Notes under the pieces: model-generated
Told to the model about the DNA's origin: nothing
The model's database searches: none
The model's input: the letters and a program-made list of their open reading frames with translations, nothing else
Made by a program: the position numbers and the translations under genes
Assembly: GCA_029262755.1 (NCBI GenBank)
Contig: JAJCYU010000105.1
Coordinates: 1 to 46,498 of the forward strand
Direction of reading: 5' to 3'
From: Anaerolineae bacterium
GTDB taxonomy: Bacteria; Chloroflexota; Anaerolineae; Epilineales; Epilineaceae
Length of the DNA: 46,498 nucleotides
In this document: piece by piece, positions 12,541 to 33,410 of the stretch
Layout of the letters: every line of letters begins with the position of its first letter
Position numbering within the stretch: the stretch's first letter is position 1

Positions 12541-12572
12541 ACGAGCGGCGATCCGAGAGGGTCGCCGCTCGT
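12541..12572 (+). terminator. Hairpin downstream of tRNA-Gln
   Basis: ACGAGCGGCGATCC-gaga-GGGTCGCCGCTCGT. Confidence 0.65.
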
Positions 12573-12778
12573 GCTGAGTAGCGCACGGACGCAGGATCGG
12601 TCTCCGGTTCAACGCGGGCCGCACACCCCGTCCTTGGCCGTCTCCAGAACGCGAGCGCACCCCTCGAATATCGGTCTGTCCTCGCGACTGTCAATCTATT
12701 CACGCCGTGGTGGATTATCATTCACGGCGTCAATAGATTCGCACCTGGCAACACGGTGCCGCCGTTTCGGTCTACACG

Positions 12779-12805
12779 GGGAACATCGGCCCACCACGCG
12801 CGTAG
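12779..12805 (+). promoter_or_regulatory. ECF-type promoter, copy 1 (GGGAACATC-N14-GTAG)
   Basis: GGAAC-N17-GTAG upstream of lipoprotein 12880. The same motif occurs at 25454, 27630 and 28566. Confidence 0.7.
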
Positions 12806-12879
12806 CTAGCGCGGAGACAACCGCAATTCTGAGAGCCACGACGTCCTTACCGGCTCTCCCCCTCCTAGGAACACGCGAC

Positions 12880-13305
12880 ATGAATCCGCTTCGGATTATC
12901 TTCCTTGCCACGATCTTGCTTGCCTCCCTCGGCCTGACGGCCTGCTCCGGAAGCACCGATGTGGCGGGCTCAGCCTCGGACGCCGAGCAGGCGAGCAAAG
13001 GGGGCGCAGACGGAGAGCTCGTATGGCCGGTGGACAGCGCGAGGGCGATTCTCGACGCGATCGAGAACTTCGAGGACGACTCGATCAACATGGCGATGCT
13101 TGACGAAATCGCTTCGAAGCAGGACCTCAAGGCCGAGGTGGAGGAGCTGGACGGCTTCTTGCAGCGCATCGCGAGCGGAGATCTAGGATCCGGTCGAACG
13201 GGCAGCGAGGCCTTGGTCACCGTCGCGACGGGTATAACGCAGGGCAGGACCGTGCCCACCCCAGACCTGCGGGACGCGCTGCGGGAGATCATCGAGACCA
13301 AGTAG
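12880..13305 (+). CDS. Lipoprotein, short paralog of 25562 and 28804
   Basis: MNPLRIIFLATILLASLGLTAC-SGSTDVAGSA resembles MRTLKLFTMTMLLLASLGLAAC-TNTDVSGTA. One helical domain. Confidence 0.8.
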   Translation: MNPLRIIFLATILLASLGLTACSGSTDVAGSASDAEQASKGGADGELVWPVDSARAILDAIENFEDDSINMAMLDEIASKQDLKAEVEELDGFLQRIASGDLGSGRTGSEALVTVATGITQGRTVPTPDLRDALREIIETK

Positions 13306-13422
13306 CGGCTCGAGACGGTTCACGTCGCGATACGCGTGGACCATCCCCGAGTGTCCTGCCGGCCTGTTGATGGCCCGTCCCAGCACGGCAACCCAACACG
13401 CTGGCGTGAACATCGCATCAAC

Positions 13423-13460
13423 GCACAAAGCGGCGACCCGAGAAGGTCGCCGCTTTGTGC
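13423..13460. terminator. Bidirectional hairpin terminator, near-copy of the tRNA hairpin
   Basis: GCACAAAGCGGCGACC-cgagaa-GGTCGCCGCTTTGTGC. Confidence 0.7.
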
Positions 13461-13598
13461 GTGTACTAGCCATCGTGTCCAGGCTGCGCGCCCCTACAAC
13501 GTTCGCGTCCACCGCTCGACCATCGCACGTGGGGACGAGTAACGAGCGCGATACGCCATCGTTCTCGCGCTCGTTCATCGCGATCGCGCTCGTGCTTG

Positions 13599-15197
13599 CT
13601 ACGGGAGAGCGAAGCCGTCCGGGGCGATCAGGAGGGCGCTCCAGACGTAGCCGCCGTCCGTGCTTTCGGTGACGAAGATCATCGCTTCGTCGTTGCCCTC
13701 GGCTCCCCAGCCGCTGCTGTGCAGCACGGCGACGACCGGGACATCGGGGCCGAGCATGGCCATCGGGTCGACGCCGTCCAGCATCGCGCTGAGGTCGGTG
13801 TCGGGCGAAGAGAAGACGAGGGGCGAACTGCCCGCCAGGTAGACCGTCTTCAGCTGCCCCGCCAACTCGTCCGGCGTGATCAAGGACCATTCGCTGCGGT
13901 ACGGGCCGAGGCCGAAGGGGTCAGTGGCCAGCGCCGTCATCCCGGGGATGTCGCGCGCCAGCACCCGCGTTTCCAGGTTGTCGATGAACTCCTTGGCCGG
14001 CGCGTCGGAGGCGCCCGTCGCGTCGAACAGCCACGCCAGCGCGTCCTCGCCGCTCGTCGCGACGACAGGCAGCAGATCGCGATCGAAGCCGGCGAGCCGG
14101 GCGTCTGCCGGTAGCGCGAGCTCCGTGAGATCACCGGTCGAGGGGCGGTAGGCCATCGTGCGTGTCGGTTCGCCCATCACGGCCGTGTCGAGGAGCGCGA
14201 GGTCGGCCTCGACCCACGTCGCCGTGCCCAGGTCGGCGCCGATCATGCGCGGCTCGCTGTCGCCGGTCGGGTCGAGGAGATGGACAGCGCGTAGCGCCGG
14301 GTCGAACGTTACAAACTGCGCGGCGAGCAAGCGCCCGTCCGGGCTCCAGCTCGGCGCGGGGAACCAACCGCCAAAGCCCATCGGCTCGTAGGCTGCCAGG
14401 GTACGAGCCGTCCGCTCGACGAGATCGAAGAGGACGATCGCGATGTCGTCGTTGGCCACCAGCCAGACCAGCTTCGTGCCGTCCGGGCTGAACGCCGGGC
14501 TCGTGACGTAGCGCGTCTGAGCGGGCGCACCCTCGAAGGCCGGGATGTCGAAGGCCTTGATCGTGCCGTTGCGCCAAAGGTGGGGCACGCCTGCACGATC
14601 GAAGGCCAGGGTGCGGCCGTCGGGCGAGGCGTCGGGAGGCGAGGCCATGTTGTGATCGGGATCGAGGATCCCGACCGTTCCGGACTCAGTGTCGATCACG
14701 CTCAAATGGCCGATGTTGGGGCCGTCTTCCTCATCGGCCGTGTGCAGGCCGCACGCAACGCGAGTGCGATCGAGCCACGCGAAGCAGCGGACGAGACGGC
14801 CGGGGAGGTCGATTAGGCGCATTTCGCCCGACGCCACGTCGAGCATCGGCAGCTGATCGGAGCGGGCATCCGGCGCGACGGGGATTCCGCGATCGCCCCA
14901 AGGAGAAAAGAGCACGCCCGTATCGTGCAGCTGCTGGGCGACACCCGCCTCGGCGACGCGCCACATACCGGCGTCCGTCTGGAACCGCAGGCCGACCGGC
15001 GCCGCGTCATCCACGGTCAAGGTCACGATCGAGGCCGTGGGCGTGGCGGGCGGGTTGGTCGGCGCGGCGGCGGTTGTCGGCGCCGCTTCGGCGGCGGGCT
15101 CCGAAGGAGCGGAGGCCGGGGAGGGGCTGCAAGCCGCTGCGGACAGCACAAGAACGGTGCAAAGGGCGGATAGTACGTGCTTGCTCGGGACCATCAT
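13599..15197 (-). CDS. Lipoprotein with TolB/PD40-like beta-propeller plus shared C-terminal domain
   Basis: Lipobox LSAAAC, Pro/Ala/Thr linker and repeats ASPDGRTLAF, FSPDGTKLVW, WSPDGRLLA. GAGGAG RBS. Confidence 0.85.
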   Translation of the reverse strand: MMVPSKHVLSALCTVLVLSAAACSPSPASAPSEPAAEAAPTTAAAPTNPPATPTASIVTLTVDDAAPVGLRFQTDAGMWRVAEAGVAQQLHDTGVLFSPWGDRGIPVAPDARSDQLPMLDVASGEMRLIDLPGRLVRCFAWLDRTRVACGLHTADEEDGPNIGHLSVIDTESGTVGILDPDHNMASPPDASPDGRTLAFDRAGVPHLWRNGTIKAFDIPAFEGAPAQTRYVTSPAFSPDGTKLVWLVANDDIAIVLFDLVERTARTLAAYEPMGFGGWFPAPSWSPDGRLLAAQFVTFDPALRAVHLLDPTGDSEPRMIGADLGTATWVEADLALLDTAVMGEPTRTMAYRPSTGDLTELALPADARLAGFDRDLLPVVATSGEDALAWLFDATGASDAPAKEFIDNLETRVLARDIPGMTALATDPFGLGPYRSEWSLITPDELAGQLKTVYLAGSSPLVFSSPDTDLSAMLDGVDPMAMLGPDVPVVAVLHSSGWGAEGNDEAMIFVTESTDGGYVWSALLIAPDGFALP

Positions 15198-15572
15198 GGA
15201 AGAACCAGACTCCTCAGCATGTGCGTGCAGAAAGCACAGGGGGCAATGCTTGTCGGGGGCATCGCTTGTCGATCGTTGGTTTCGGCCGAAGCTTCGTGCG
15301 GCGACGTGTAGAACGGCGATGTCTAGAATGGCGTTGTCGTGCGAGACGATGCTCCGCATGCCGATCGGGTAACTTTACCTGCGCCGCCGGCAAGACGTTC
15401 GATTCTGGATGTGATTCAAGCGACATGTTTTTTCTCGAACCCGGCACCGTAGGGCTCGGTATACCGTCCGTGACCGGCGCGTCCCCATTCACGAGGCCGC
15501 GCGTCCCCCGGTCCGGGCCGCCTTCATAGTTCGTCCCTTGCAAGCCACCGCCCCGAAGACCGGAGACACACC

Positions 15573-16298
15573 ATGTTCAGCCGTCGCCATACATCGCCTC
15601 GAACGTTCAGTCGGCTGCCCGCCTTGTGCGCGGCGTTCGCCCTCGCATTCGCATTTGTGCTCGTCCCACGACCTGCCTCCGCCGACTGCGCGCCTACGGT
15701 GCCGTGTTTGTGCCCGGACACGGACGAGTTCGGCACGGATCAACCCATACACAGTGCCTTGATCGACGTGATTGGGAGCGATGTGGACGGTCACTTCGTA
15801 CGGATCGTTGCCATTTGGAGCGGCCGAACCGCCGGAACGGCACCCGCACAGGTCGGCGATGAGATCTGGGTGCTCGACGAGTCGTGGCACCCGCTGCGCC
15901 AAGCCTACATGCCCGAGGCCGGGCGACGCGCGTTGATGGCCTGGTCGGCAGGCGACGAGGCGGAAGACGGTTACCTTCTCTACCTGCTCGATCGACGCGA
16001 TCGCGTTCGGTGCGAGCAAGATTGCCGCTTCCGAATGGACGCCGCAGACGCCGCGCAAGCCATTCTCGCCGACGCCGCGACCTGCGCCGCCCTACGCGAC
16101 GCCGCGGGCTACGTGGAAGGCGATCCGGGTTGCCTGGACGTGGTCACGCCCATGGCGCTGCCGTACATCCTTGGCCACGCCGCCTGGTGCGAGTACGAGA
16201 CGAGCCTCCGCTACGGTGGCGTCCTTGGCATGATCGGGCTGCTCGGGGTGTTCGGGTGGCTGCAGCGGCGAAGGGTACGGTCTACGAGGCACGAGTAG
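15573..16298 (+). CDS. Secreted Cys-rich protein with C-terminal TM anchor
   Basis: GGAG RBS, signal peptide ending PASA-DC, 8 Cys in the mature part, C-terminal TM followed by RRR. Confidence 0.75.
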   Translation: MFSRRHTSPRTFSRLPALCAAFALAFAFVLVPRPASADCAPTVPCLCPDTDEFGTDQPIHSALIDVIGSDVDGHFVRIVAIWSGRTAGTAPAQVGDEIWVLDESWHPLRQAYMPEAGRRALMAWSAGDEAEDGYLLYLLDRRDRVRCEQDCRFRMDAADAAQAILADAATCAALRDAAGYVEGDPGCLDVVTPMALPYILGHAAWCEYETSLRYGGVLGMIGLLGVFGWLQRRRVRSTRHE

Positions 16299-16312
16299 GC
16301 CCCGCGCCCTGT

Positions 16313-19300
16313 TCACCGGCAGGGGATCGTGCGGCCCACCTCCTCGTAGATCGCACGGAGATCCGCCGCGGTCGGCGCGCGGAAGGCATGGGCCGGGCTG
16401 GCCGCGATCCGCACGAGCAGCGCATCGTCCACGTCATCGCCCAGGCCGATCGTGTACACGTCGATGCCCGCGGCGCGGGCGCGCTCGCCTTCGGTGATGA
16501 CGGGCGCGGGATCGTCCTGGCGGCCGTCCGAGAGCAGCACGACCATCGGCTTGCGGCGCGTGGAACTCGGCACGGCGCGTAGCAGGTCGATGGCGGCGGC
16601 CAGGCCGCGGTCGATACGGGTGCCGGGGCGCGTGTCGATGATCGCCAGCGCGGTACGTAGGCTGGCTGGATCCGAAGAGAGATCGTGGATCACACGCGGC
16701 GCATCGTCGAAGGTGACCAGGGCCGCGGCGTCTGCGCCGGGCGCAAGATCAAGGAGATCCAGGAAGGTGCCGACCGCAGCCGTGGCGGCATCGAGCTTGG
16801 CGCCCGTCATGCTCGACGAGCTGTCCAGGACAAGGGCGACGTCGAAACGCAGCGTGCCTGGCAGGCAGTGTCCGCGCATGGCCAGCGGCAGGAAGAGCGG
16901 CTTCGGCGGCGGTCCAGCAGTCGGGGTAGCTTGCGTCGGCGCGGGGGTGGGCTCGACCGTCGGGGCGGGCGTCGGCGTCGGGGTCGGCGGCGCCTCGCGC
17001 ACGGTTACGAAGGGCACGGGGAACACGATGCGGCCCGGCGCGCCCCAGCCGTCGGTGAAGGTCGCCTCGGCCCGCACATTGGTGGGCCAGCGGCCGATCT
17101 GCTGGGGTTCGACGTCGAGCGCGAACGCGCTTCGACCGTAGGGCAGGGCCGCTTGCGACCAGGAAACGTCCGCGCCCGCCGCCGAGCCTCCTGCCGAGAT
17201 CGAAGCCGGCACCAGACGCATGTTGGCCGGCAGGGTGTCGATCAGGTTCAGGTTGATAGCGAGGGCGCCGGGGAAGTGGTAGCGCACCATGCGGTGCTGC
17301 AAGCCCGCCCAGTCGAAGGTCACATCTGCGTCGCTGGAGGACAGAGGTTGCGCATCGGCCTCGTAGGTAGAGCCGTCGAAGCGGTAGCCGCGCCAGCCCG
17401 TGCGGTTGCCGTCATGGACGATGATCTGGATGCCGTCGTCGCGAATGTCGCCCGCCGCGATGGCGGCGTTGGGCCAGGGGCGGCAGTCGCCGTCGCGATA
17501 GGCCAGGTCGCGATTGCAGTAGAAGGCGTGGTAGACGACCATCACGCGGCGGCGTTCGGAGGGTGGCCCGAGGGTTCTGGCGGCCAGCTTCATGCCCTCG
17601 CGCAGCACCGGGTAGGGCTTGGCGCCGAAGCCGCAGCTTGGGCGGTCGTTGCGGATGAAGCAGCTTGGCGGCCAGCGGCGGGCGATGCGGGGGATCTCCG
17701 CTAGCAGGTCGGCTCGGTCGTGCGTCGGCTCGATCTCGACGCGCGAGTCGCGGAAGTAGCCGACGATGCCGACCCTGTGCTTGTCCATGTCGATCCGGCT
17801 GACCAAGCGGCGTAGTTCGCGGATCGTGTCGCCCGCGTTGTCCGGAACGCCGTTGGGCGGGTAGAAGAGGGTCACGATCATGATGTCGGACGGCGACTCT
17901 CCGATGCCACAGAAGCCGTCAAGCTCGAGTTGAACCGTCGTGTGCTCGCCTAGGGCCAGATCGTCGGGCGCGGCCGTCTTGTCGCCGCGCAACACGCAGG
18001 TAGCGTCGCTCGGCACGGGCAGCGCGTCGCTGCCGGGCGGTGCCGGTTCGAAGACCGCGACAACGCTGCCCTGCTCGTCCGCGACGTAGACACGGCCGAC
18101 CTCGTCGGCGGCGATGCCGCTGAGCGTCTGCGGGTCCGTGGCCGCGAAGGGGCGTCCGTCGAAGCGTGCGCTCACGCGGCCGTCCGGCTCATAGCGCTCG
18201 ACGTAGCCGCTCTCACGTAGGCCGAAGAGGTGGCCGCGCGTGCCTCCGGCGATCGCGCGCACGTCATCCGCGACCGAGATCGTGGGCAGCGACGAGCCGT
18301 CCGCCGCGAACACGATCACGAGATCGCGATGATCGTCCAGCACCAGCACGCGGCCGTCCGGGCCAACGCTAAGGTCCTCGTAGGGGTTGATCGCGTAGGT
18401 CGAGCTGGTGTCGTCCGGCAGATCCCAGCGCGTGAAGCGAGGGCTGCCGCCCGCGGCGAGCAGCAAGAGGTGCGGATCGTCCTTGCGCGTGACCGGTGCG
18501 CGTTCATAGACAAGGGCGTATACCGTGTCGTTGACGTCACGAAAGGCCAGGTCGACGAGCTTGAGATGGTTGGCGTTGTCGCGGCCGAGGTCCTCGTTGC
18601 GTTCCCTGGACTGGGTGCTGAAGCGTTGCGTCCATACGGGATCGATCACCTGGATCTGCTGGCCGTATTCGACGGTAGTCGTCGTGCGGAAGAAGCCGAT
18701 GCCGTGCTCGTCCTCGATCCACTGTGCCCCGCCCGGATCGGGTCCGCGCGGCCCGGGGGTGAGGCGGATCTGAGGGGTCGGCATGGGGGTCGGCGACTCG
18801 ACGGGCGTCGGCTCGGCCGCCGAGGCGGTGGGTGTGGCCCGGTCGTCTTCTCGGCCGGCGCGTTTGCCGCGGTGCTCCTTGATGTAATAGCCGAAGAGGG
18901 CATCTGTGGTCGCGGCGCCGTCCGCGCGATCCACCCGCAGACGGCGCGTGCTGCCCACACTGCGGCGCGTCGTGAGGCCGAGCGTGTCGATGACCGTGCC
19001 GTCCGGCTGGAAGTAGCGTGCCGTCCGCGTACTGTCGAGCACGAACACCCGCTCGGGCGCAGGCACGCTGAGGTGGCGCGGTGCCACGAGCCCGCCATCG
19101 GCACGCGCATTGACCGCGGAGAGGAAGATCGCATCCACCTGCGCAAGCCCTGCTTCTCGGTAGCGCACGACCGCCGCCGTCGTCGGCAGCGAGGTGTCCT
19201 TGCCACCGCGCGTGCTGTAACAGGGGCCGTAGTTCGGGTCGTAGGCTGCCACCGCGTAGAACTGCCCCAGCGCCGGCCGTATGAGCGGCACGCGCACGGT

Positions 19301-20311
19301 TGGCTTGCAGATGGTGCCGCCGCCGGCCGAAGTCGCAATCGTGTGCTCGAAGGCGCGCGGCTCGATGCGGCAGGCGCCGCTGCCGTCGCCCACCCAGATC
19401 GTGTCGCCTCCCAGCGCGTGCACGACACCGGCGCGGCATTGGTTGAAGGGCGGACCGAAGCCGGAAGTACCGTACTTCGGGTGCTGCAGGTTGTAGATCT
19501 TGCGGATGTCCGCGCCGTCTGCGCGCAAGTCGAAGAGCTGCACACGGGTCTCGTTCAGGTCGCCGATGGCCAGCGTGGCGCCGTCGGCGCTGACGGAGAG
19601 ATCGGACATGAGCGTGAAACGTCCTTCCTCCGTACCGTGGCCGCCGAAGGAGAAGAGGCGCGTGCCGGCACCATCCACGACCACCACCGTGTTCGTCTGC
19701 TTCTCGGCCACGTACACTCGCCCGTCCGGACCGACGGCGATCGACGCCCCGTCCAGATCTTCCCACGCACCAACGTAGCTGCCGTCCAGAGCGAAGATCA
19801 CCACCCGTTGCCCGCCGGTGTCCAGCACGTACAGTCGGTCTGCCGGCTCGTCCAATACCAATTTGCCGACCGCGCCCATACCGCCCGGGCCGCTGCCCAC
19901 GGTCCCGAAGGGCGGCAAGAAGGTCCCGTCCGGCAGCATGGTCAGGACGCCGCCGACGCCACGGTCCGCGATGAACACGCGCCCGTCCGCCGCCACGTCG
20001 AGGCCCACCGGATCGTCGATCGCCGACCGCCCGCCTGCGACGCGATCCGGCCAACGATCGATGCGGACGTAGGCTTCCAGTGCCGGAGCTTGAGCGTGCA
20101 CCGTGCGCGCCTTGGATCGCGCAGACTCCCTGAGGGAACTGCGCGCCGATGTTTGTCCGTTCGGACCGCTCAGCGCCACGCTCGACGCCGCAGACGAATC
20201 GTGCAAACGATCCGGAGCCACGAACGTAGCAAGAACCACCAGCAGGGCTACGCGCGCCATGCGCCACGCAGCATCGGTGACGGTGGGAACTGCGACGTGG
20301 TGACGATCCAT
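16313..20311 (-). CDS. Large secreted NHL-repeat beta-propeller / double VWA-domain protein
   Basis: NHL repeats (PVGLDVAADGRVFIAD, GIAADEVGRVYVAD) and PT-rich linkers. The C-terminal VWA has MIDAS DSSSS, T-RIDRGL, LLSDG and YTIGLG. GGAGG RBS. Confidence 0.9.
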   Translation of the reverse strand: MDRHHVAVPTVTDAAWRMARVALLVVLATFVAPDRLHDSSAASSVALSGPNGQTSARSSLRESARSKARTVHAQAPALEAYVRIDRWPDRVAGGRSAIDDPVGLDVAADGRVFIADRGVGGVLTMLPDGTFLPPFGTVGSGPGGMGAVGKLVLDEPADRLYVLDTGGQRVVIFALDGSYVGAWEDLDGASIAVGPDGRVYVAEKQTNTVVVVDGAGTRLFSFGGHGTEEGRFTLMSDLSVSADGATLAIGDLNETRVQLFDLRADGADIRKIYNLQHPKYGTSGFGPPFNQCRAGVVHALGGDTIWVGDGSGACRIEPRAFEHTIATSAGGGTICKPTVRVPLIRPALGQFYAVAAYDPNYGPCYSTRGGKDTSLPTTAAVVRYREAGLAQVDAIFLSAVNARADGGLVAPRHLSVPAPERVFVLDSTRTARYFQPDGTVIDTLGLTTRRSVGSTRRLRVDRADGAATTDALFGYYIKEHRGKRAGREDDRATPTASAAEPTPVESPTPMPTPQIRLTPGPRGPDPGGAQWIEDEHGIGFFRTTTTVEYGQQIQVIDPVWTQRFSTQSRERNEDLGRDNANHLKLVDLAFRDVNDTVYALVYERAPVTRKDDPHLLLLAAGGSPRFTRWDLPDDTSSTYAINPYEDLSVGPDGRVLVLDDHRDLVIVFAADGSSLPTISVADDVRAIAGGTRGHLFGLRESGYVERYEPDGRVSARFDGRPFAATDPQTLSGIAADEVGRVYVADEQGSVVAVFEPAPPGSDALPVPSDATCVLRGDKTAAPDDLALGEHTTVQLELDGFCGIGESPSDIMIVTLFYPPNGVPDNAGDTIRELRRLVSRIDMDKHRVGIVGYFRDSRVEIEPTHDRADLLAEIPRIARRWPPSCFIRNDRPSCGFGAKPYPVLREGMKLAARTLGPPSERRRVMVVYHAFYCNRDLAYRDGDCRPWPNAAIAAGDIRDDGIQIIVHDGNRTGWRGYRFDGSTYEADAQPLSSSDADVTFDWAGLQHRMVRYHFPGALAINLNLIDTLPANMRLVPASISAGGSAAGADVSWSQAALPYGRSAFALDVEPQQIGRWPTNVRAEATFTDGWGAPGRIVFPVPFVTVREAPPTPTPTPAPTVEPTPAPTQATPTAGPPPKPLFLPLAMRGHCLPGTLRFDVALVLDSSSSMTGAKLDAATAAVGTFLDLLDLAPGADAAALVTFDDAPRVIHDLSSDPASLRTALAIIDTRPGTRIDRGLAAAIDLLRAVPSSTRRKPMVVLLSDGRQDDPAPVITEGERARAAGIDVYTIGLGDDVDDALLVRIAASPAHAFRAPTAADLRAIYEEVGRTIPCR

Positions 20312-20553
20312 GGGTGGCCTCCCGTATCCAAGAGTGTCCGGCGCAAGGCGTGCGACACGGCGCCCACCTTCCTGGTTCCGTCGGCTCGTGGCCGGTATCC
20401 TTGCAAGTGTTGAACGCGGCCGCGCCGCCCGACTCTAAGTTTCGTCACGGATCGCGCGAGCCCTGGACGCGCTGCGGCCATAGTGTTAGCCTCGATCTAC
20501 CGGCATGCGAATGCAACTTCACCCCACGCACCCAACGATCGGAGCGACCTCTC

Positions 20554-21048
20554 ATGGCCCCCAGTTCCTCCCCTCCCCAGCCCGGCACGGGCTACGATGT
20601 CCAGCTCAAGACCTTGCCCTCGCAGACCGTCGTGACGATGCGCAAGGATACGACGCCCGAGGGCTTGCCCGAGGCCTACGGCGAGATGCTGCCCGCCACG
20701 CACCACGCGATCCAGGGTGCCGGCGGCGAGAGCGCCGGCCCGCCCTTCGGCGCGTACCACGCGTTCACGCCGGAGCACGTGGATCTGGAGGCCGGCGCGC
20801 CCGTGGTCGCCGCCATCGAGGTCGAAGAGCCCGTGCGCTGCTACCAACTGCCGGAACTGCATGTGGCCAGCCTGATGCATGAAGGGCCATACGAGGGCCT
20901 CGGCGACGCGCATGCCGCGCTCCAAGGCTGGGTCTCGCAGCAAGGGCACACGCGCAACGGCCCACCGATGGAGATCTACTGGACAGACCCGGGCGCCGAG
21001 CCGGATACGAGCAAGTGGCGCACGGAGCTCGTGCAGCCCGTCGAGTAG
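20554..21048 (+). CDS. GyrI-like small-molecule-binding domain protein
   Basis: GPPFGAYH, HEGPYEGLGDAH and MEIYWTDP...WRTEL motifs. Confidence 0.9.
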   Translation: MAPSSSPPQPGTGYDVQLKTLPSQTVVTMRKDTTPEGLPEAYGEMLPATHHAIQGAGGESAGPPFGAYHAFTPEHVDLEAGAPVVAAIEVEEPVRCYQLPELHVASLMHEGPYEGLGDAHAALQGWVSQQGHTRNGPPMEIYWTDPGAEPDTSKWRTELVQPVE

Positions 21049-21199
21049 TCGCGCGGCCCGTCGAGCACCCGCGCGGCCGGGTCGCGTCAGCGAGAGATCG
21101 GTCACCTAGGCGCGCGACACGTGGGATCGGCGCGTAGCCCGTTGCGAACACGGCCGGTAGGACAAAGCCGGCGTGTACTGCGTCCTGCATTCGGCCGCG

Positions 21200-22108
21200 C
21201 TACACGCCGTCCGTCTCGTCGCCGAAGAGCTTCGGCTGCACCGGCGGCGTCGCCGTGTCCGCCCGCGGCTCCGCCTCCCCCGGCCAAGGCGGCATTGCGC
21301 CCACCGGTGCCCCGCGTTCGCGCAGCATCGCATGCCAGGTGCGGGCGAGCTGAGGCGCGCCCGTGTCGCCCGGCAAGTGGATGAATAGCACCGGGCGACG
21401 GCCTTCGGCGATCCATGCGGTAAAGCGATCGGCCCATTCCTCCAGCCAGGGGGCGTTGGCCGGAAGGTCGGGATCGGCGATCAGGCGCACGACGGGCTGG
21501 TCGCCCAGCTGTTGCGGCCACACCGGTAGATCGGGTTTGCGCTGCCTGGCCTTTTCGGCCTCCGGCTCGTGTACCGCCGATGCGCGGAGCGGGCGGCTAT
21601 CGAGGACCACGCGGTCGGCGCCGTGCTCGGCCAAGAGGGCGTCGACGTCCGTGACCCATTGCTCGGAGAAGAGGGTGGGGTGCCGCAGCTCCACCGCGAC
21701 GTCCAGCCACCGGGGCAGCGTGTCGAGGTAGGCAGCGAGCGTAGGGAGCTGAGCGCGGCCGAAGCGCGGCGGCAGCTGGAGCATCGTGGGTCCGAGCCGC
21801 GAGCGTGCTGCGTCCAACGCGTCGAGGAACATCCGCGTCTCGACCTCGGCATCCACGAGCCCACGGTCGTGGGTGATGGCGCGGGGGACCTTGAAGGAGA
21901 ACCCGAAGCCCGGCGGCGTTTGGGCGGCCCAAGCCGCGAGGCGCTGCGGAGTCGGGATCGCGTAGAAGGTCGGGTTGCCTTCCACGGAGTTGAACACGGA
22001 CGCGTATTCGCCGAGCCGGTCCGACGCCTTGGCGTCCCGCGAGTAGAGCGAGCCGTGCCAGGAGCGAGAACCCCAGATCGGCAGGCCCAAGCCGTAGCGT
22101 TCGATCAT
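21200..22108 (-). CDS. DUF72 (YecE-like) protein
   Basis: GLPIW, SVEGNPTFYAIP, FSFKVPRAITH, LQLPP, AVELRH, FIHLP. Confidence 0.9.
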   Translation of the reverse strand: MIERYGLGLPIWGSRSWHGSLYSRDAKASDRLGEYASVFNSVEGNPTFYAIPTPQRLAAWAAQTPPGFGFSFKVPRAITHDRGLVDAEVETRMFLDALDAARSRLGPTMLQLPPRFGRAQLPTLAAYLDTLPRWLDVAVELRHPTLFSEQWVTDVDALLAEHGADRVVLDSRPLRASAVHEPEAEKARQRKPDLPVWPQQLGDQPVVRLIADPDLPANAPWLEEWADRFTAWIAEGRRPVLFIHLPGDTGAPQLARTWHAMLRERGAPVGAMPPWPGEAEPRADTATPPVQPKLFGDETDGV

Positions 22109-22352
22109 GGTAGGCGCCCTTGGAGAGCGGGAGGGGAGAGGGAGAGGAAGAGGCAGCGACAACCAGTGCCGGCCGGGTAGCCGCGCTCACGGTACGAGCT
22201 CGCGCGAGGAGCGTCAATCGCAAAATTCGAGAGCGACGTGCGGTCTCGACAGCCCCGGGGGCCCCTGGTACCGTCGGCTCCTCGGCGCGCCGATATCCTC
22301 TTGCCGAGAAGTCCGGATCGTTTCCACCGACGACGCGAGCGAGTTGCCTGTA

Positions 22353-22925
22353 ATGTCCACATTCCGCAAGGCGGTACGAAATCTCGCTCCGACTGGTGAG
22401 GAGCGACGTACGATGATCATCGGCGCCGTCGTGCCCGCTCTGATCGGGCTGTTCGCAGTGATCGGCTTGGGCAGACTATCCGGCTACGATGCGCGCATCC
22501 TCTACAGTGCCGCCATCCCAAGCCTGCGGCTCCTCAGCTCCACGGTGAGCACGGCCGCGGCCACGATTCTGGCCCTGATGGTCACCGTGCTCAGCCTGAG
22601 TTCCAATGCCGATGCCGATCTACCCCTCGAACACTATCGCCGCATCGAGCGCATCGCGTTTCTATGCACCGCGGCGCTCATCGGCGCGTTGGTGTCTCTC
22701 CTGGTCTACGGTCTGCCCATCCAGGAATCCGACAAGATTGAAGGCTCGTGGTTCATCGTCGTCTACTTCCTCGGCTCGGCGACCGGCGCCAGTCTTGCGG
22801 CGATCATGATGGCCGTGATGCTGCAGCTGCTTGCCACGGTCAATCAGGTAATCCTTGCCTATCGACCGGACGTAGCGGAAGAGAACGCAGAGACGCGCAG
22901 TGCGAAGGACGCTTCGCCCGGATGA
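22353..22925 (+). CDS. Hypothetical integral membrane protein (4 TM)
   Basis: Four hydrophobic segments. The stop overlaps the next ATG. Start is uncertain. Confidence 0.7.
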   Translation: MSTFRKAVRNLAPTGEERRTMIIGAVVPALIGLFAVIGLGRLSGYDARILYSAAIPSLRLLSSTVSTAAATILALMVTVLSLSSNADADLPLEHYRRIERIAFLCTAALIGALVSLLVYGLPIQESDKIEGSWFIVVYFLGSATGASLAAIMMAVMLQLLATVNQVILAYRPDVAEENAETRSAKDASPG

Positions 22926-24799
22926 GGACTCGTCCGCAGGATGCATCCGACGATCGTACTCGCGCGGCGGGGTCGTTCGCCCGAGTGAGCGCCGGCGCTA
23001 CCGTGTGCGTCGCGCTTGTCGTTGTCGTGGGCGCCGTCTTGCGTCCTACGGATAGCGTCTCCGTTCCGAACACTGTTCAGTTCGCCGACGTTCCCGAAGA
23101 GGAGCAGGCAGGCTACCAGGTTCTCCACCAACTCGAGATCCCGGCCGAGGGTCCCGGCTACCACCAACAGCCACCACCCTACACCATCGACCGTTCCGCG
23201 GAGCTGGGCGATCGCTTCGACCGCGTCGCGTACCATCTTGCGCTCGAAGGGCGCGGTTTCGCGGGCACACGGACTCTGTGGGTCTCGATGGCCGCCTTCA
23301 CGGACACGTTGCGGCACCTCGGCTTGCCTGTCCTCTCGACCGGCGCGGTGTTCCAACGCGCCGTGCAAGAGCTCCATGTATACGGCAGCGAGACCGATCT
23401 GCCGCGCGGCGCGAAGTTGGGCGCGGGTGCAATCGAGTTCTGGCCGCACAACTACACGCCGATCAACGAGCGGCGCGTTCCAGGCGCGGATGACAGCGCC
23501 TACGACCACGGCGATCTCCCGGTCGATCCGCGGGAGGGCTACGGATCGCTGCAAGTGCATCACCCCGACTCGGCCACGGTCTTGTTCGCCTGGAACGGGT
23601 GGGGCAGCACCGGCGCCTCCGATCTGGGCATCGGCACGAGCCGCATGGGGCACGCGGACTGGACCTTCGCGCAGAACGCCGGCGACTACGCGCGGCGAAC
23701 GCTCACGATCCTCGTCCGCCCCACGACCCCGCTTTCGTCCACGTCGTCGATCACGTCTACGTTGCAGCTTTTCGCCCCCCGCGCCCACGCGGTACACCAG
23801 CGGGACGGCGCGAACCGTGCGCGCGTGCCGATCGTCGGGCGCGCGAGCGCGGGCGGGCTGACGGCGCAGGCACGCGCGCACCCGCTTGCGCCCGACGGCT
23901 CGCCGGCCGACCCCGCGACGCCGTGGCGGACGCTTGCGCTTGCGCCGGACGGACACATCCGGGATGCGCTCGTCCTCGATGCCGGATGGTACGCGGTGGA
24001 GGTCGGGCTCTTCGCATCGACGGATCGCGAGACGACGGGCGATCCGCTCGTGACGCGGCGGATCGGGCCGGTCGGCGTCGGTGAGGTTTTCATCTCGGCC
24101 GGCCAGTCCAACTCGGCCAACCACGGCATGCCGCAGAGCGAGCCGCGGGATCGGCGCGTCACGGCGGGCGGGCTCGACGGATGGCGGCCCGCGTGGGACC
24201 CGCAACCGGTCGCGACCGGTGACGGCGGCTCGCCATGGCCCGCGTTCGCGGACCGGATCGCCGCGGAACTCGACGTGCCGGTCGGTCTCGTGTCCGTCGG
24301 CTGGGGAGGCACGCAGGTCAGCCAGTGGCTGCCCAACGGCACGCTCTATCCGCGGCTGCGTGACGCCATCGAAGCGCTGCGGCCCAACGGCGCCCGTGCC
24401 GTATTGTGGCACCAAGGGGAGTCCGACGCCCAAGGTGGCACGGCGTCGGACGACTATGCACGCAGGTTGGCGGTCATCATCGCCGCGTCGCGCGATGACG
24501 CAGGGTTCGCGTTGCCGTGGGGCGTCGCGCGCGGCGGTTTCATGCCCGGCATCGTCCCTGAGTGGATCGCGGCCGTCGTCTCCGGCCAGGACGCGGTGAT
24601 CGCCGCGGACCCGGCCGTGTTCGCCGGCCCACCGACCGACGACCTCGTCGGCGCGGCCTGGAGGCACGACACGGTTCACTTCAACGCAGCGGGTCTCGAC
24701 GAACATGGTGAGCGTTGGGCAAGGCACGTGCTAGGCTGGCTCCGCGACGGTGGCCGATTGCCCGGCGGCGCCCCGACGGCGTTGCCACCGCCGGACTAG
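22922..24799 (+). CDS. Sialate O-acetylesterase (SASA/SGNH) domain protein with an extra N-terminal domain
   Basis: GVGEVFISAGQSNS, VPVGLV..GWGGT, WHQGESD and DTVH catalytic motifs. N-terminal TM/signal. Confidence 0.85.
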   Translation: MRTRPQDASDDRTRAAGSFARVSAGATVCVALVVVVGAVLRPTDSVSVPNTVQFADVPEEEQAGYQVLHQLEIPAEGPGYHQQPPPYTIDRSAELGDRFDRVAYHLALEGRGFAGTRTLWVSMAAFTDTLRHLGLPVLSTGAVFQRAVQELHVYGSETDLPRGAKLGAGAIEFWPHNYTPINERRVPGADDSAYDHGDLPVDPREGYGSLQVHHPDSATVLFAWNGWGSTGASDLGIGTSRMGHADWTFAQNAGDYARRTLTILVRPTTPLSSTSSITSTLQLFAPRAHAVHQRDGANRARVPIVGRASAGGLTAQARAHPLAPDGSPADPATPWRTLALAPDGHIRDALVLDAGWYAVEVGLFASTDRETTGDPLVTRRIGPVGVGEVFISAGQSNSANHGMPQSEPRDRRVTAGGLDGWRPAWDPQPVATGDGGSPWPAFADRIAAELDVPVGLVSVGWGGTQVSQWLPNGTLYPRLRDAIEALRPNGARAVLWHQGESDAQGGTASDDYARRLAVIIAASRDDAGFALPWGVARGGFMPGIVPEWIAAVVSGQDAVIAADPAVFAGPPTDDLVGAAWRHDTVHFNAAGLDEHGERWARHVLGWLRDGGRLPGGAPTALPPPD

Positions 24800-24883
24800 C
24801 ACAGTTCTCAGCCAGCCCTGCAACCCCCTCGGCGACCAACCGCACGTACGGACCGCGCACATGCCCTCGACCGGAGCACAGCC

Positions 24884-25480
24884 ATGTCTCGTCCCCAGCC
24901 CTCGCCGCTACCCCTTGTCGCCCTGTTTCGCGGCATCAACGTCGGTGGTCGCAACGTGCTGAAGATGGCGGATCTGCGGGATCTGCTACGCGGCTTGGGG
25001 CTGCACGACGTGCAGACCTACATCCAGAGCGGCAACGTTGTCTTTCGCATGGATGATGCGGACGCCCCTGGTAGTGCAGGCGCCGGCGAGCGCGACCTCG
25101 CGGCCTTACGTGCGCGTATCGAAGACGCCGTGGAGGCGGCGCACGGATTCCGGCCGCGGGTGCTTGTGCTTGGCGGAGAGGAATTGCTCAGCGCCATCGC
25201 CGCCAACCCCTATCCCGAAGCAATGGCGGAACCAAAGACGCTGCACCTCTTCTTCTTGGAACAGGTGGCCTCAGAAGCGGACCTCGACACGTTGAACGAA
25301 CTGCGGCGCGACGGCGAGCGCTTCGCGTTGTTTGAGCGTGTCTTCTATCTCCATGCCCCCGCGGGCATTGGGCGTTCGAAGCTTGCGTCGAAGGTCGAGC
25401 GCGCTCTGGGCGTGGCCGCGACAGCACGCAACGGACGCAGTGTGGCGGCCATCGGGAACATCGTGGCGCCTCCCGAGTAG
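24884..25480 (+). CDS. DUF1697 family protein
   Basis: VALFRGINVGG.N.LKMADLR, VQTYIQSGNVVF, ANPY, ATARN. Confidence 0.9.
   Translation: MSRPQPSPLPLVALFRGINVGGRNVLKMADLRDLLRGLGLHDVQTYIQSGNVVFRMDDADAPGSAGAGERDLAALRARIEDAVEAAHGFRPRVLVLGGEELLSAIAANPYPEAMAEPKTLHLFFLEQVASEADLDTLNELRRDGERFALFERVFYLHAPAGIGRSKLASKVERALGVAATARNGRSVAAIGNIVAPPE
25454..25480 (+). promoter_or_regulatory. ECF-type promoter, copy 2 (inside the 3' end of DUF1697)
   Basis: GGGAACATC-N14-GTAG. The GTAG includes the DUF1697 stop codon. Confidence 0.65.
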
Positions 25481-25561
25481 AAAGGCTGTCGCATACACAG
25501 AAGCACGGCGACACCGCCCGCACCAGCTCGTGACCTCGACACATTCAGGGAGGAACCACTC

Positions 25562-26527
25562 ATGCGCACGTTGAAGCTGTTCACCATGACCATGTTGTTG
25601 CTGGCTTCGTTGGGCCTCGCGGCCTGCACGAACACCGACGTCTCAGGTACGGCCGGCGACACGCCGCCTGAGGTTCCCGGCAAAGAGGTTCCGCCGGACC
25701 CCCAGAATCCGCCCGAGAAGCCCGGCGGCAACGTCGATCCCGGTTCCGGTAACACCGATCCCGGCCAAGAGAAGGGTGGCGCGAACGATCCCGGTAGCGG
25801 TGGCAACGCCGATGCCAGCAAGGAGATCACCCTCGAGAGCTTCCTTGCCCAGCTGAACCCGTCCCAGCGTCTGGACTTCGCCTACATCGAAGAGCACTGC
25901 GGAGCTCCGTGCCTCGAGGCGAGCGAAGCCTTGAACGCCTTCATCCAAGAGCTGTGCGCCACGAGCCCGGACGACTGCACCGCCGAGCTGCAGGCCATGC
26001 TCACCAAGCAGCGCACGACGACGCAGGTCCGCAACGATCAGGGTCTGGTCGGGCTGCCCAACGCGGACACCGTTTCCAAGCTCCTCCAGCAGTCGCAGGG
26101 CGGCGCCCCGGCGGGCGGCGGTGACACCAGTGGCGGCGACGCCGGCACAGGTGGCGGCGACACGGGCGGCCAGGCCGGTGGCGGCGACACCGGTGGCGAC
26201 ACCGGTGGCCAGGCCGGCGGCGGCGACAACAAGGGTGGCGACGAGGGCAAGGCGCTCCCGGCCGCGCCGGTAGCAGCAGCGGCGGCCGTGCAGGCGGTCA
26301 TCGAGAGCATCGGTCTTGACACGCTTAGCTGGAACGAGATCGCGGGTGCGGCCGACAAGGCGGACGTCGCAGCCCTGGCCACGTACTTCCAGCAGATCAC
26401 GGAGGGCGGCCTCGCGCTACCCGGCTGCGACGACTGCGTGGACACGATGAACGACCTGATGGGCGGCAACAACGTGGACGTGGATGACATCCGCAACCTG
26501 TTGATCGCCATCCAGACCATCGGCTGA
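25562..26527 (+). CDS. Two-domain Cys-containing lipoprotein, paralog A
   Basis: GGGAGG RBS, lipobox LAAC, Pro/Gly linker, 4-Cys domain, GGDT linker and CxxC domain. Confidence 0.9.
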   Translation: MRTLKLFTMTMLLLASLGLAACTNTDVSGTAGDTPPEVPGKEVPPDPQNPPEKPGGNVDPGSGNTDPGQEKGGANDPGSGGNADASKEITLESFLAQLNPSQRLDFAYIEEHCGAPCLEASEALNAFIQELCATSPDDCTAELQAMLTKQRTTTQVRNDQGLVGLPNADTVSKLLQQSQGGAPAGGGDTSGGDAGTGGGDTGGQAGGGDTGGDTGGQAGGGDNKGGDEGKALPAAPVAAAAAVQAVIESIGLDTLSWNEIAGAADKADVAALATYFQQITEGGLALPGCDDCVDTMNDLMGGNNVDVDDIRNLLIAIQTIG

Positions 26528-26598
26528 GGCAGTTCGAACACGAATCAATCGTGATCGCGGAGCAGCAGCCCACGATCGCAAGCGAACGATCAACGTGC

Positions 26599-26630
26599 GA
26601 GGAGGGCGTCCCCCCGGGGACGCCTTTCTC
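26599..26630. terminator. Hairpin downstream of paralog A
   Basis: GAGGAGGGCGTCCCC/GGGGACGCCTTTCTC imperfect inverted repeat. Confidence 0.55.
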
Positions 26631-26686
26631 GCGTCTCATCGCAGCCGGCGGCTCCAGTCTGCTCCACCGCCAGCGTCTACCGCCCA

Positions 26687-26851
26687 CCGCGCCAGTCGGG
26701 TTCGCGTTCTCCTCGCCGGGTCTATCCCTCGCCGCGCCAGTCGGGTTCGCGTTCGCCTCGCCGGGTCTATCCCTCGCCGCGCCAGTCGGGTTCGCGTTCG
26801 CCTCGACCGGTCTATCCCTCGCCGCGCCAGTCGGGTTCGCGTTCGCCTCGC
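26687..26851. repeat. 45-bp tandem repeat, about 3.6 copies
   Basis: Unit CGCGCCAGTCGGGTTCGCGTTCGCCTCGCCGGGTCTATCCCTCGC starting at 26688, 26733, 26778 and 26823. Confidence 0.95.
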
Positions 26852-27588
26852 ATGAACAGGGCGAGGTAGTCCGCCGAAGGGTGTCGGGTTGCGGCGATGG
26901 CACGCAGCACCGCGGCGTTGTCATAGGCCACGTACCGGCGCTCCAGCTCGTAGCCGCTTTCGTCGGCATGCAACAGGACGTACTTGGCCCGCAGGTCATC
27001 GCCGACAGGGTTGCTCACGCTGCCGAGGTTGACCGCCCGCACGCCGCCTACCGTCCGGTCCACCGGCCAATGGGTGTGCCCGGTGAAGACCAGGTCGGCA
27101 TCGGCGTCGGCCAGGAGGGCTCCAAGCTCTTCGTCGGACTGAGCCGGGTGGATCCCGGGTCCGTCGTCGGTGCCGGGTGCGGCGTGCACGCCAAGGACGC
27201 GCGTGCCGTCGGGCAGGGTTTCGCGCAGCTCGAGGGACAGGGACGCGAGGTGATCCAGGTGCGCGGTGCGCAGCGCACCGCGAGTCCAGCCGAAGCTCGC
27301 GCTGAGGCCGAGCAGATTGGCCAGACGATCGGGCCGGCTGCGCAGTACCGTGGCGGCGGTCTCGAGGTCCACGCCGTCCAGCGTCAGCCGGTCCGTGTTG
27401 CCGCGCGTGAAGCGCGCATTGGGCAGCGCGAGCAGGCGCTCCATGGCGCCGAGAGGGTCGTAGCCGAGCGCCGCAAGGTCACCGAGCACCCAATGGGCAT
27501 CGGCGCCCCCGGCCGCGGTGAGGTCGGCCAGGACGGCATCGAGGGCGATGGGATTGCCGTGCACGTCGGAGAGGATTGCGACTCGCAT
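26812..27588 (-). CDS. Metallophosphoesterase (calcineurin-like, YfcE/MJ0936 type)
   Basis: SDVHGN, LGDL, RGNTD, VHAAP, GHTH, NLGSV. Confidence 0.95.
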   Translation of the reverse strand: [258 protein letters not shown]

Positions 27589-27629
27589 GACGCGATGGTG
27601 CCCGAACTTGGCCGAATGCGCACATCGGT

Positions 27630-27656
27630 GGGAACATCTCCTAGAGGCGGGCGTAC
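27630..27656 (+). promoter_or_regulatory. ECF-type promoter, copy 3
   Basis: GGGAACATC-N14-GTAC upstream of 27772. Confidence 0.65.
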
Positions 27657-27771
27657 AAGGACCGTACCCATCATCAAACAGCCGTGGCCGCACGCGATCA
27701 CGGAGAGCCTTTCCAGCCCCCCAACGTGGCGGATCTTCGCGATCCCCGCGCCCCAAGATGGAGCCATCGGC

Positions 27772-28539
27772 ATGTCCGAGTCAGGCACACGCGGCGCGTT
27801 CGACCGCTGGCTCCCTGAGCCTTCGGAGGACGGAGGACAGCGCCCATCCGCGCCCGAACGCCTTGCGTCACGTGTCCTGGGCATGCTGCCTGTGGGCACA
27901 CCCGGCTTCTATCACGCCTTGGCCGAGATCGTCATCGACGCCTGGGCGGATCACGACCTGCGCGAGCATCTGCGCCGAGACCCGGCAGCAGCCATCGCAA
28001 AACGCGGGCTCGAGATTCCAGCCAATATCACCTTCGACATCGTCTCACCCTACGAAGCGACGTTGCCGGAAGGCACGCGCGTTGGACTGCCCCTTCCGCC
28101 CGCGAACGATCCCGTCACGACCACCGCGCTAGCACGGGCGGGCCTGGCGGACACGGCATGGGGCTGGTTGTTGAACGCCCCCGTCGAGTCCATGGACGCC
28201 GACGAAGATCCACTCGCAGCCGGATCCGCGTTCGCCGTTGCGGCGGCGCGTGTCCAAGAGAGAGAGCAGGCGCGTGCGCATCAGGATCACGCCGCGCGAT
28301 CTACAAACAAGCACACACCGTGGTTCGACCGTTTCCGTCGCACACCGCGACCGGTCTTCACGCTCGTCGGCGCCTTCGGCGCCGTGGTGCTGCTGATCTG
28401 GTCCGCGAACTCAGGAGGCATTCTCTCTGGAGATTCGACCTCCGGCACCGCCTCGGGCACCCTGTCCTGGACCTGGACCGCCATCTACCTCGCTGCGTTC
28501 GGCGCAGCCTGGTGGTGGATGGCCGGCCGGAAAGGATGA
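27772..28539 (+). CDS. Membrane-anchored protein with NHLP/nitrile-hydratase-alpha-leader-like domain
   Basis: GGAG RBS. LAEIVIDAWADHDLREHLRRDPAAAIAKRGLEIPANITFDIV...LPLPP, then two C-terminal TM helices. Confidence 0.7.
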   Translation: MSESGTRGAFDRWLPEPSEDGGQRPSAPERLASRVLGMLPVGTPGFYHALAEIVIDAWADHDLREHLRRDPAAAIAKRGLEIPANITFDIVSPYEATLPEGTRVGLPLPPANDPVTTTALARAGLADTAWGWLLNAPVESMDADEDPLAAGSAFAVAAARVQEREQARAHQDHAARSTNKHTPWFDRFRRTPRPVFTLVGAFGAVVLLIWSANSGGILSGDSTSGTASGTLSWTWTAIYLAAFGAAWWWMAGRKG

Positions 28540-28565
28540 CCACCAACCCTTAGGTAGCAATTCGT

Positions 28566-28592
28566 GGGAACATCACAGCAACCCACGAGTAG
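28566..28592 (+). promoter_or_regulatory. ECF-type promoter, copy 4
   Basis: GGGAACATC-N14-GTAG, followed by AAGGACTGTCGC, which resembles AAAGGCTGTCGC after copy 2. Confidence 0.7.
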
Positions 28593-33381: not shown

Positions 33382-33410
33382 TTGACAGAGGTACCCCGCC
33401 AAGGCACGAT
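33382..33410 (+). promoter_or_regulatory. Putative sigma70 promoter of the prsW-like operon
   Basis: Perfect TTGACA-N17-CACGAT. Confidence 0.5.

Follow-up and report, generated by a model that had tools for sequence, protein, structure and literature searches.

A repeated motif and the genes that follow it

The stretch of DNA analysed here (the window: 46,498 nt, contig JAJCYU010000105.1, C105 in our numbering) belongs to the draft genome of an Anaerolineae bacterium (assembly GCA_029262755.1, our G000; 428 contigs, 5,056,438 bp, 66.8% GC), an organism with no close relative among species representatives and with a family that consists of uncultured genomes. The window carries three lipoprotein genes (lipoA, lipoB and lipoC), a gene for a two-helix membrane protein, and a string of genes encoding a PrsW-family membrane protease, a ParA-like ATPase, a helix-turn-helix (HTH)-like protein, a cyclic nucleotide monophosphate (cNMP)-binding protein and a sigma factor of the extracytoplasmic function (ECF) type (Table 1). 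Our subject is a bipartite motif that precedes each of the three lipoprotein genes and the membrane-protein gene, and the regulatory system to which it appears to belong: we consider it likely that the motif copies are promoters read by the ECF sigma factor encoded at 37048–37635 (sigma 37048), that they serve a small lipoprotein regulon and an anti-sigma factor, and that PrsW releases the sigma factor in a circuit with negative feedback. For comparison we used 16 genomes of the same family and 24 more distant ones (homolog search); individual relatives are referred to by G numbers.

The motif, GGGAACATC-N14-GTA[GC], matches the window four times (12779, 25454, 27630 and 28566), always on the + strand, and has no match in 100 dinucleotide-preserving shuffles of the window; pattern search recovered the very copies that the initial annotation had listed, with spacers that differ from site to site as it had stated. 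By itself, GGGAACATC occurs in the window only at these four sites, against 0.31 occurrences expected, and 36 times genome-wide. The full pattern has five copies in the 5.06 Mb genome (84% complete, the unassembled 16% lying outside all genome-wide counts): the four in the window and a fifth on contig C80. All five exact copies are co-oriented with, and 29–212 nt upstream of, a gene for a lipoprotein or the two-helix membrane protein. The distances in the window (75, 82, 116 and 212 nt) agree with the 75–210 bp first reported.

The conserved blocks are GGGAAC and GTA with 17 nt between them and a free spacer sequence, that is, a −35 block GGGAAC with an A/T-rich extension and a −10 block GTA(G/T/C) placed 17 nt after the AAC. 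Because three of the five sites in this genome read CGTA, the anatomy may also be written AAC-N16-CGTA/AGTA; the −10 element of SigW is CGTA. Compared with the canonical ECF promoter consensus, the sites show the expected AAC-core −35 element, GTA-type −10 element, fixed spacing and co-oriented upstream position, and judged from sequence the four repeated motifs are very probably ECF-type promoters. The bipartite ECF-type promoter proposed in the initial annotation is upheld by the invariant blocks, the fixed spacing, the free spacer and conservation at orthologous genes.

Genome-wide, GGGAAC-N17-GTA[TGC] has a promoter-like context in 6 of 12 matches, as against 2 of 33 for the reversed control pattern. 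A one-mismatch scan with spacers of 13–15 nt gave 28 rows, 21 of them within gene calls (made with a crude home-made caller, which missed the membrane-protein gene), and so these looser matches appear chance-like. The sole further genome match in promoter-like context, C123:7742(+) (GGGAAC-N17-GTAC, 42 nt before a 134-aa open reading frame), was considered as a sixth site and set aside: the frame lacks a signal peptide and the match is probably due to chance. Two intergenic occurrences of GGGAACATC-N13-GTTACAC, at C243:556(+) and C311:3577(−), may represent a second, related promoter class belonging to another ECF sigma factor. No sigma70-like promoter was found within 24800–30100, and an Rfam search of 12000–38500 returned one tRNA only and no leader RNA family.

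Table 1. Motif copies and genes of the proposed system (positions in the window unless a contig is given).
Feature	Position	Strand	Description
Promoter site 1	12779..12805	+	GGGAAC-N17-GTAG; 75 nt before lipoA start (12880)
lipoA	12880..13305	+	141-aa lipoprotein; lipobox LTAC; tag C-SGST-DVAGSA
Promoter site 2	25454..25480	+	82 nt before lipoB start (25562)
lipoB	25562..26527	+	321-aa lipoprotein; tag C-TNT-DVSGTA; four-cysteine helical domain and C-terminal helical domain
Promoter site 3	27630..27656	+	−10 block GTAC; 116 nt before membrane-protein start (27772)
Membrane protein, candidate anti-sigma factor	27772..28539	+	255 aa
Promoter site 4	28566..28592	+	27 nt after membrane-protein stop, 212 nt before lipoC (28804)
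lipoC	28804..29790	+	328-aa paralog of lipoB
PrsW-family membrane protease	33382..34671	+	PF13367 at 90.1 bits (cut-off 23.5)
ParA/MinD-like P-loop ATPase	34685..35428	+	
Small winged-helix/HTH-like protein	35814..36266	+	150 aa; Pfam HTH matches weak, below cut-offs; kept in the cluster
cNMP-binding-domain protein	36259..36978	+	PF00027, 69.2 bits
ECF sigma factor (sigma 37048), proposed cognate sigma	37048..37635	+	195 aa; Sigma70_r2 and r4_2
Fifth promoter site	C80:1366	−	29 nt before a 145-aa lipoprotein gene

Of the three lipoproteins first described as paralogs, lipoB and lipoC are so related (72% identity overall, 92% over residues 1–184), but lipoA is not: as with the C80 protein, its likeness to the pair is confined to the signal peptide and a short tag that follows the cysteine of the lipobox (residues 1–34 by BLASTP; residues 1–35 by hhalign, at 90% probability). 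Judged by eye against [LVI][ASTG][GA]C, all four carry a lipobox (LGLTAC, LGLAAC, LGLAAC and ISLVAC), and they share the tag C-x2-6-D-[VLM]-[SA]-G-[STA]-A. In a six-frame regular-expression scan of the genome the only plausible tag carriers were lipoA, lipoB and lipoC, whose promoters score 27.1–27.5 bits, whereas the five other rows score at most 12.4 bits; the C80 lipoprotein, in which the tag is present by eye, was left out of that scan by its K/R filter. The lipoproteins match no Pfam or NCBIfam family. The model of lipoB has two confident helical domains, and its fold found no match in the PDB (best E 1.9) and no usable neighbour in the Atlas (best 0.75). Homologs of lipoB adjoin the membrane-protein or PrsW gene in relatives. 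In G011 (contig C12, locus L162, 3812–9124), the membrane-protein gene is surrounded by a row of three tagged lipoB/C-type paralogs, of which two have identical promoters; in parallel with the lipoB/lipoC duplication, this row suggests repeated local amplification of regulon members.

The surroundings of the sites are varied. Site 1 is intergenic, between a tRNA gene (12453–12523; RF00005, 61.9 bits) and lipoA. The tRNA gene, which cuts short a long open reading frame (11530–12660, − strand) of the plain list, is followed by a hairpin with 14-nt arms (12541–12572), and about 40 nt upstream of site 1 lies an inverted repeat (12693–12739; 17-nt arms, 94% complementary, 13-nt gap) overlapped by a sigma70-like element, TTGACA-16-GATATT, on the minus strand (12694–12667); repeat and element may together form an operator or a divergent promoter. 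The proteins that flank lipoA (11530–12201 and 13599–15149, both − strand) have in common, by eye, a C-terminal domain of about 100 aa with the pattern GPYRSEW...MLGPD...VLHS(S/T)GWG, to which no family could be assigned; in one of them PD40 beta-propeller repeats are present as well. At 7546–8703, 4 kb upstream of site 1, lies a full-length group 1/2 sigma-70 gene with regions 1.2, 2, 3 and 4, its RpoD-type NCBIfam matches falling under the equivalog cut-offs.

Site 2 overlaps the last codons and stop of an upstream DUF1697 gene (24884–25480), and site 3 lies between a divergent metallophosphoesterase gene (26812–27588, − strand) and the membrane-protein gene. The arrangement of site 4 recurs in G009, G013, G015 and G016. 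For lipoC we use the start at 28804, which is common to its homologs; an in-frame ATG occurs further upstream at 28736. The lipoC leader (28593–28803) is about 130 nt longer between promoter and ribosome-binding site than that of lipoB, the two being alike right after the −10 block, and the lipoprotein homologs of G009, G005, G012 and G011 likewise have long leaders, of 216–266 nt. Non-coding tandem repeats lie downstream of lipoB (26687–26851; 45 nt, 3.7 copies, 96% matches) and of lipoC (29916–29990; 16 nt, 4.7 copies).

Conservation of the motif and the sigma factor cluster

The motif extends beyond this genome. In the form GGRAAC-N17/18-GTA(T/G), and with unrelated spacers, it lies upstream of membrane-protein and lipoB/C homologs in 11 related Chloroflexota-like genomes. 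A table of family promoters, picked with a regular expression, holds 29 sites from 12 genomes, this genome's five included: the spacing is 17 nt in 24 of them and 18 nt in five, and the three bases after AAC are A/T-rich, giving a consensus GGGAAC(A/T)T(T/C). Related cluster loci with a total length of 104,001 bp contain 22 matches, whereas the reversed pattern gave none and 200 Markov simulations averaged 0.385 (at most 3); each of the 22 is co-oriented with and upstream of a gene for PrsW, for the membrane protein or for a lipoprotein with the tag. The pattern GGGAACAT-N15-GTA is not commoner genome-wide in the family than its reversed control. Since such loose patterns match their controls genome-wide, a whole-genome census of the regulon in the relatives cannot be taken by pattern alone.

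Two readings that would deny the motif the role of a promoter can be weighed against these data. The first, that the copies are leftovers of duplication or chance matches without function, gains something from lipoB and lipoC, which are recent duplicates and alike just after their −10 blocks; yet three of the five sites stand before unrelated genes (lipoA, the membrane protein and the C80 lipoprotein), and neither their flanks nor their spacers are related; no match arose by shuffling, and the motif persists at orthologous genes although protein identity is no more than 25–42%, so that we find this reading scarcely credible. The second, that the motif is a binding site for a transcription factor, for example the HTH-like or the cNMP-binding protein, both of which are kept in the cluster, is in our view very unlikely. 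The motif is not palindromic, and it consists of two short invariant blocks whose distance is fixed at 17 (18) nt, with a free spacer, in one orientation, 29–270 nt before a start codon, which is the anatomy of a sigma-dependent promoter; moreover, no other promoter-like element was found nearby, and the −35 block matches the AAC-type elements reported for RpoE/SigW-like sigma factors (PMC6713349).

As to the sigma factor that would read these promoters, sigma 37048 matches region 2 (PF04542, 60.8 bits) and region 4 (PF08281, 61.5 bits), lacks r3 and r1.2 domains, and scores 115.9 bits against 42.9 with TIGR02937; by these matches it is a standard ECF (group 4) sigma-70 factor. Among solved structures it comes nearest to AlgU, SigW and E. 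coli sigmaE (E ~1e-24), so that the SigR/SigH-type likeness first suggested gives way to an RpoE/AlgU/SigW-type one. With the SigW models it reaches 118.6 bits against 243.1 (TIGR02948) and 124.0 against 209 (PRK09641), about half of the curated cut-offs, and for this reason we do not regard it as an equivalog of SigW or RpoE; it would be a factor that works like SigW without being a SigW ortholog. The cNMP-binding gene, whose start may be at 36163, is directly upstream of the sigma gene, also in relatives, and PrsW (92.6 bits in the genome scan, family membership being assigned by score) is the first gene of the kept string PrsW, ParA-like, HTH, cNMP-binding, ECF. The genome also encodes three M50-family genes, a second PrsW-family gene and at least 42 ECF-type region-4 hits.

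Gene order in relatives connects this string with the motif. In relatives, the best matches to the sigma factor (37–51% identity) keep the HTH, cNMP-binding and ECF synteny, and in seven of the 12 related genomes with an inspected 37048-ortholog locus (G005, G012, G008, G014, G013, G015 and G001) the motif heads a run of genes on one strand whose last member is the sigma ortholog. The order in G013 and G015 is motif, membrane protein, motif, lipoprotein, PrsW, ParA-like, (HTH), cNMP, ECF, and G009 has the same order across a contig break; in G008 and G014 it is motif, lipoprotein, PrsW, ParA, HTH, cNMP, ECF, motif, (lipoprotein), membrane protein; in G005 and G012, motif, PrsW, ParA, HTH, cNMP, motif, membrane protein, ECF; and in G001, PrsW, ParA, HTH, cNMP, motif, 155-aa protein, motif, lipoprotein, ECF. 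A sigma gene on the same strand downstream of its motif is the usual layout of ECF autoregulation, and strings that begin with the motif and end in the sigma ortholog tie sigma 37048 to the motif; the link to this factor, tentative in the initial annotation, is backed by this synteny. A scan of named genomes with the ECF alignment gave at least 80 loci, mostly of generic ECF sigma factors; at the 80 listed, tblastn found no homolog of the membrane protein or of lipoB/C.

The membrane protein as candidate anti-sigma factor

The membrane protein behind site 3 consists of N-terminal helices, a domain at about residues 40–135, two C-terminal transmembrane helices that flank an outside loop of 15–20 residues, and a basic C-terminus. 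The domain is modelled confidently, the N-terminus alone poorly (predicted local distance difference test, pLDDT, 42–50). Residues 51–92 match TIGR03793, the profile of nitrile hydratase-like leader peptide (NHLP) precursors, at E 2.2e-6 and with 27.4 bits, below the cut-off of 50.9; PF02979 (nitrile hydratase alpha) matches six of ten family members, the best at E 9.8e-5; and the Foldseek matches, all weak (E 0.34 or worse), are to nitrile hydratase alpha chains, to 8tb1 (a proteusin NHLP precursor, probability 0.92 over 46 columns) and to Os1348. These matches support an NHLP/nitrile-hydratase-alpha likeness of residues ~40–135 at the level of the domain only.

A word-based search with the membrane protein found no homolog. 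Homologs with 31–42% identity occur in 9 of the 16 family genomes and in none of the 24 more distant ones, and a ten-member profile detects the protein in three of four sampled family genomes and in none of 146 other genomes of the class. Against a library of 1.84 billion proteins the profile has 38 matches at E ≤1e-30 and about 46 full-length representatives, the weaker matches covering the NHLP-like domain only.

When residues 1–200 of the membrane protein were modelled together with sigma 37048, the three runs gave an interaction prediction score from aligned errors (ipSAE) of 0.74, 0.83 and 0.75 (median 0.75), whereas the best of three controls gave 0.00; in its calibration, the mark used for this score was reached by 58 of the 80 solved complexes and by 2 of the 110 mismatched pairs, counts that are only roughly valid for self-built alignments. 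At least 80% of contacts agree between runs, with a partner pLDDT of 79, and they join sigma residues 18–86 and 133–191 with membrane-protein residues 10–48, 98–99 and 132–141. On this model the membrane protein, which the initial annotation had taken for an unrelated NHLP-like protein, probably serves as the system's anti-sigma factor.

A variant of the protein was seen in G001 (contig C26, locus L168, ~8191–8760), where the motif stands before a 155-aa protein that by eye matches only the N-terminal helical part of the family; that frame has neither the NHLP-like domain nor the hairpin, and the protein may be an anti-sigma factor in split or truncated form.

A proposed sigma, anti-sigma and PrsW circuit

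The reading that we favour can be set out as follows. The RpoE/SigW-like sigma 37048 would read the four promoters of the window and that on C80, its regulon being the four tagged lipoproteins and the membrane protein. The cytoplasmic N-terminal part of the latter would, according to the prediction, clamp sigma2 and sigma4, and its transmembrane hairpin would present a short loop on the outer side of the cell. On an envelope signal PrsW would, as in the analogous sigmaW/RsiW/PrsW system, cut the anti-sigma factor at this loop, and the freed sigma factor would then induce the lipoproteins together with fresh anti-sigma factor, closing a negative feedback. We infer from motif and synteny that RNA polymerase starts transcription at the motif, and that sigma 37048 is the factor which reads it; cleavage of the anti-sigma factor by PrsW is presumed from the analogous system.

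Several observations weigh against this circuit. No motif copy was found in the 400 nt upstream of the 37 evaluable ECF genes among the 42 (best 10.1 bits), the region upstream of sigma 37048 scoring 7.5 bits as against 23.7–27.5 for the five true sites; PrsW is without a copy in this genome, and it is separated from lipoC by two opposite-strand genes (30053–30778 and 30895–33234, the second encoding a PLD/VTT protein). Among relatives, G011 has the sigma string on another contig than the targets and without a motif; G007 keeps the string, but with a divergent sigma gene, no motif and no membrane-protein homolog; in G003 the motif copy points away from the sigma gene; and G010 offers a rearranged contig fragment without a motif. 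In five relatives GGRAAC-N17-GTAK is genome-wide not commoner than its reversed control, the specificity in relatives rests on context, and the 29-site table was itself selected by regular expression. The case for an anti-sigma factor, finally, is weak by sequence and rests on the complex model, a prediction: none of the ten family members matches an anti-sigma Pfam family at E ≤1, no conserved Cys or His of the HxxxCxxC kind that marks class I anti-sigma factors such as those with zf-HC2 appears in the N-terminal part of the alignment, and the cNMP-binding or HTH-like protein could be the true regulator instead.

Some of these points would also be accounted for if the motif were a real ECF-type promoter read by another ECF sigma factor, perhaps one encoded in the unassembled 16%, with sigma 37048 a mere neighbour. 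This would agree with the number of ECF-type hits in an incomplete genome, with the lack of a motif copy upstream of the sigma 37048 gene and in the strings of G011 and G007, and with the presence of a second ECF gene about 3.6 kb from the C80 site. Set against it are the motif-headed strings ending in the sigma ortholog in seven of 12 relatives, the adjacency of motif, membrane-protein gene and ECF gene in that order in G005 and G012, the complex model that pairs sigma 37048 with the motif-driven membrane protein, and the lack of an upstream motif at every other ECF gene evaluated, the one near the C80 site scoring 1.8 bits. On balance we consider a different sigma factor improbable, and retain sigma 37048 as the likely reader.

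A further element may connect the candidate anti-sigma factor with the lipoproteins. In 8 of the 10 family members the outside loop contains [LVT]-[SA]-G-[AT]-A, which resembles the lipoprotein tag; in the shared form h-[SA]-G-[STA]-A, VSGTA occurs in the G005 membrane protein and in lipoB/C, and TSGTA in membrane protein 27772. For a broad form of the pattern, the expectation in this proteome is 0.012 occurrences per 20 residues. Because the members are kin, its presence in eight of ten counts as one coincidence rather than eight, and the simple composition of loop and tag weakens the idea of a shared site. It is conceivable, though in our estimate doubtful, that the common motif is a PrsW recognition or cleavage site, such that one protease frees the sigma factor and sheds the induced lipoproteins, or that the lipoproteins compete for the protease. 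If so, the system would be either a secretion circuit of the 'induce and release' kind, complete in itself and centred on an anti-sigma factor with a recruited NHLP-like domain, or, in place of lipoprotein shedding, a feedback loop based on substrate competition.

In its logic the proposed module is a variant of the sigmaW/RsiW/PrsW type. The RsiW of B. subtilis has one transmembrane helix together with an extracellular domain (PMC5358783); PrsW cuts it first, RasP afterwards (PMC5358783, PMC4105308, PMC3482391). Sigma 37048 falls in the same broad clade as SigW (SigW NCBIfam model, E 6e-36; PDB 5wuq, E 2.5e-24), although below the SigW equivalog cut-off as noted above; the −35 elements share a GAAAC/GGAAC core followed by T-rich bases, that of SigW being given as TGAAACxTTT (PMC6713349); the candidate inhibitor here is likewise membrane-anchored, with a cytoplasmic N-terminus predicted to bind the sigma factor; and a PrsW-family protease is present, as are M50 site-2-type proteases elsewhere in the genome. 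Unlike RsiW as described in PMC5358783, the candidate anti-sigma factor ends in a two-helix hairpin with an outside loop of ~15–20 residues, and it has no Pfam-detectable zinc-binding anti-sigma domain but an NHLP/nitrile-hydratase-alpha-like domain in its stead. The setting differs as well, PrsW being clustered here with the sigma, ParA-like, HTH and cNMP-binding genes, and the proposed regulon being a handful of tagged lipoproteins.

Structures from the E. coli sigmaE/RseA and P. aeruginosa AlgU/MucA systems (6in7, 8z6g, 1or7, 6jbq; E ~1e-24 to 1e-25) are closest to sigma 37048, and the sigmaE −35 element, quoted as GGAACTT (PMC6713349), is near the family consensus. In contrast to those modules, no RseA/MucA-like anti-sigma gene follows sigma 37048, the candidate site-1 protease is PrsW-type rather than DegS/AlgW-type, the −10 block is GTA(T/G), and the host belongs to a Chloroflexota-like lineage. 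The precursors of ribosomally made, post-translationally modified peptides (RiPPs) of the NHLP class (TIGR03793), and the N-terminus of nitrile hydratase alpha, resemble the central domain of the membrane protein, all scores being below cut-off; unlike these precursors, the membrane protein has no cleavable core peptide, bears two transmembrane helices and, at the N-terminus, an additional helical segment, and uses the domain, if the complex model is right, as part of a sigma-binding module. No RiPP maturation genes were seen in the Pfam table of the cluster.

Published promoter mining for ECF factors (Staron 2009; Rhodius 2013) likewise sought bipartite motifs with variable spacers upstream of ECF operons and targets (PMC3817407, PMC7826278), and our motif analysis follows the same logic; the main text of PMC7826278 does not mention PrsW or Chloroflex, nor cNMP or nitrile. 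Neither the promoter type nor the logic of sigma factor, anti-sigma factor and site-1 protease is new. The anti-sigma architecture, the PrsW/ParA-like/HTH/cNMP cluster and a lipoprotein regulon defined by a tag, on the other hand, are undescribed in the literature that our searches covered, and a search pairing anti-sigma factors with NHLP or nitrile hydratase returned, within the text available, no description of such a use.

The tag common to the lipoproteins and the loop of the candidate anti-sigma factor suggests that sigma activation is linked to lipoprotein processing, a link that the searched portion of the literature on PrsW systems (including PMC3482391) does not describe. If the membrane protein is an anti-sigma factor, the NHLP/nitrile-hydratase-alpha-like domain would have a regulatory use beyond RiPP biosynthesis, and the known architectures of ECF inhibitors would be joined by one with a two-helix hairpin, a tiny outside loop and no zinc motif. 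For a Chloroflexota-like lineage without genetics, the window provides a testable regulon: four promoters, a candidate sigma factor, a candidate anti-sigma factor and a candidate site-1 protease.

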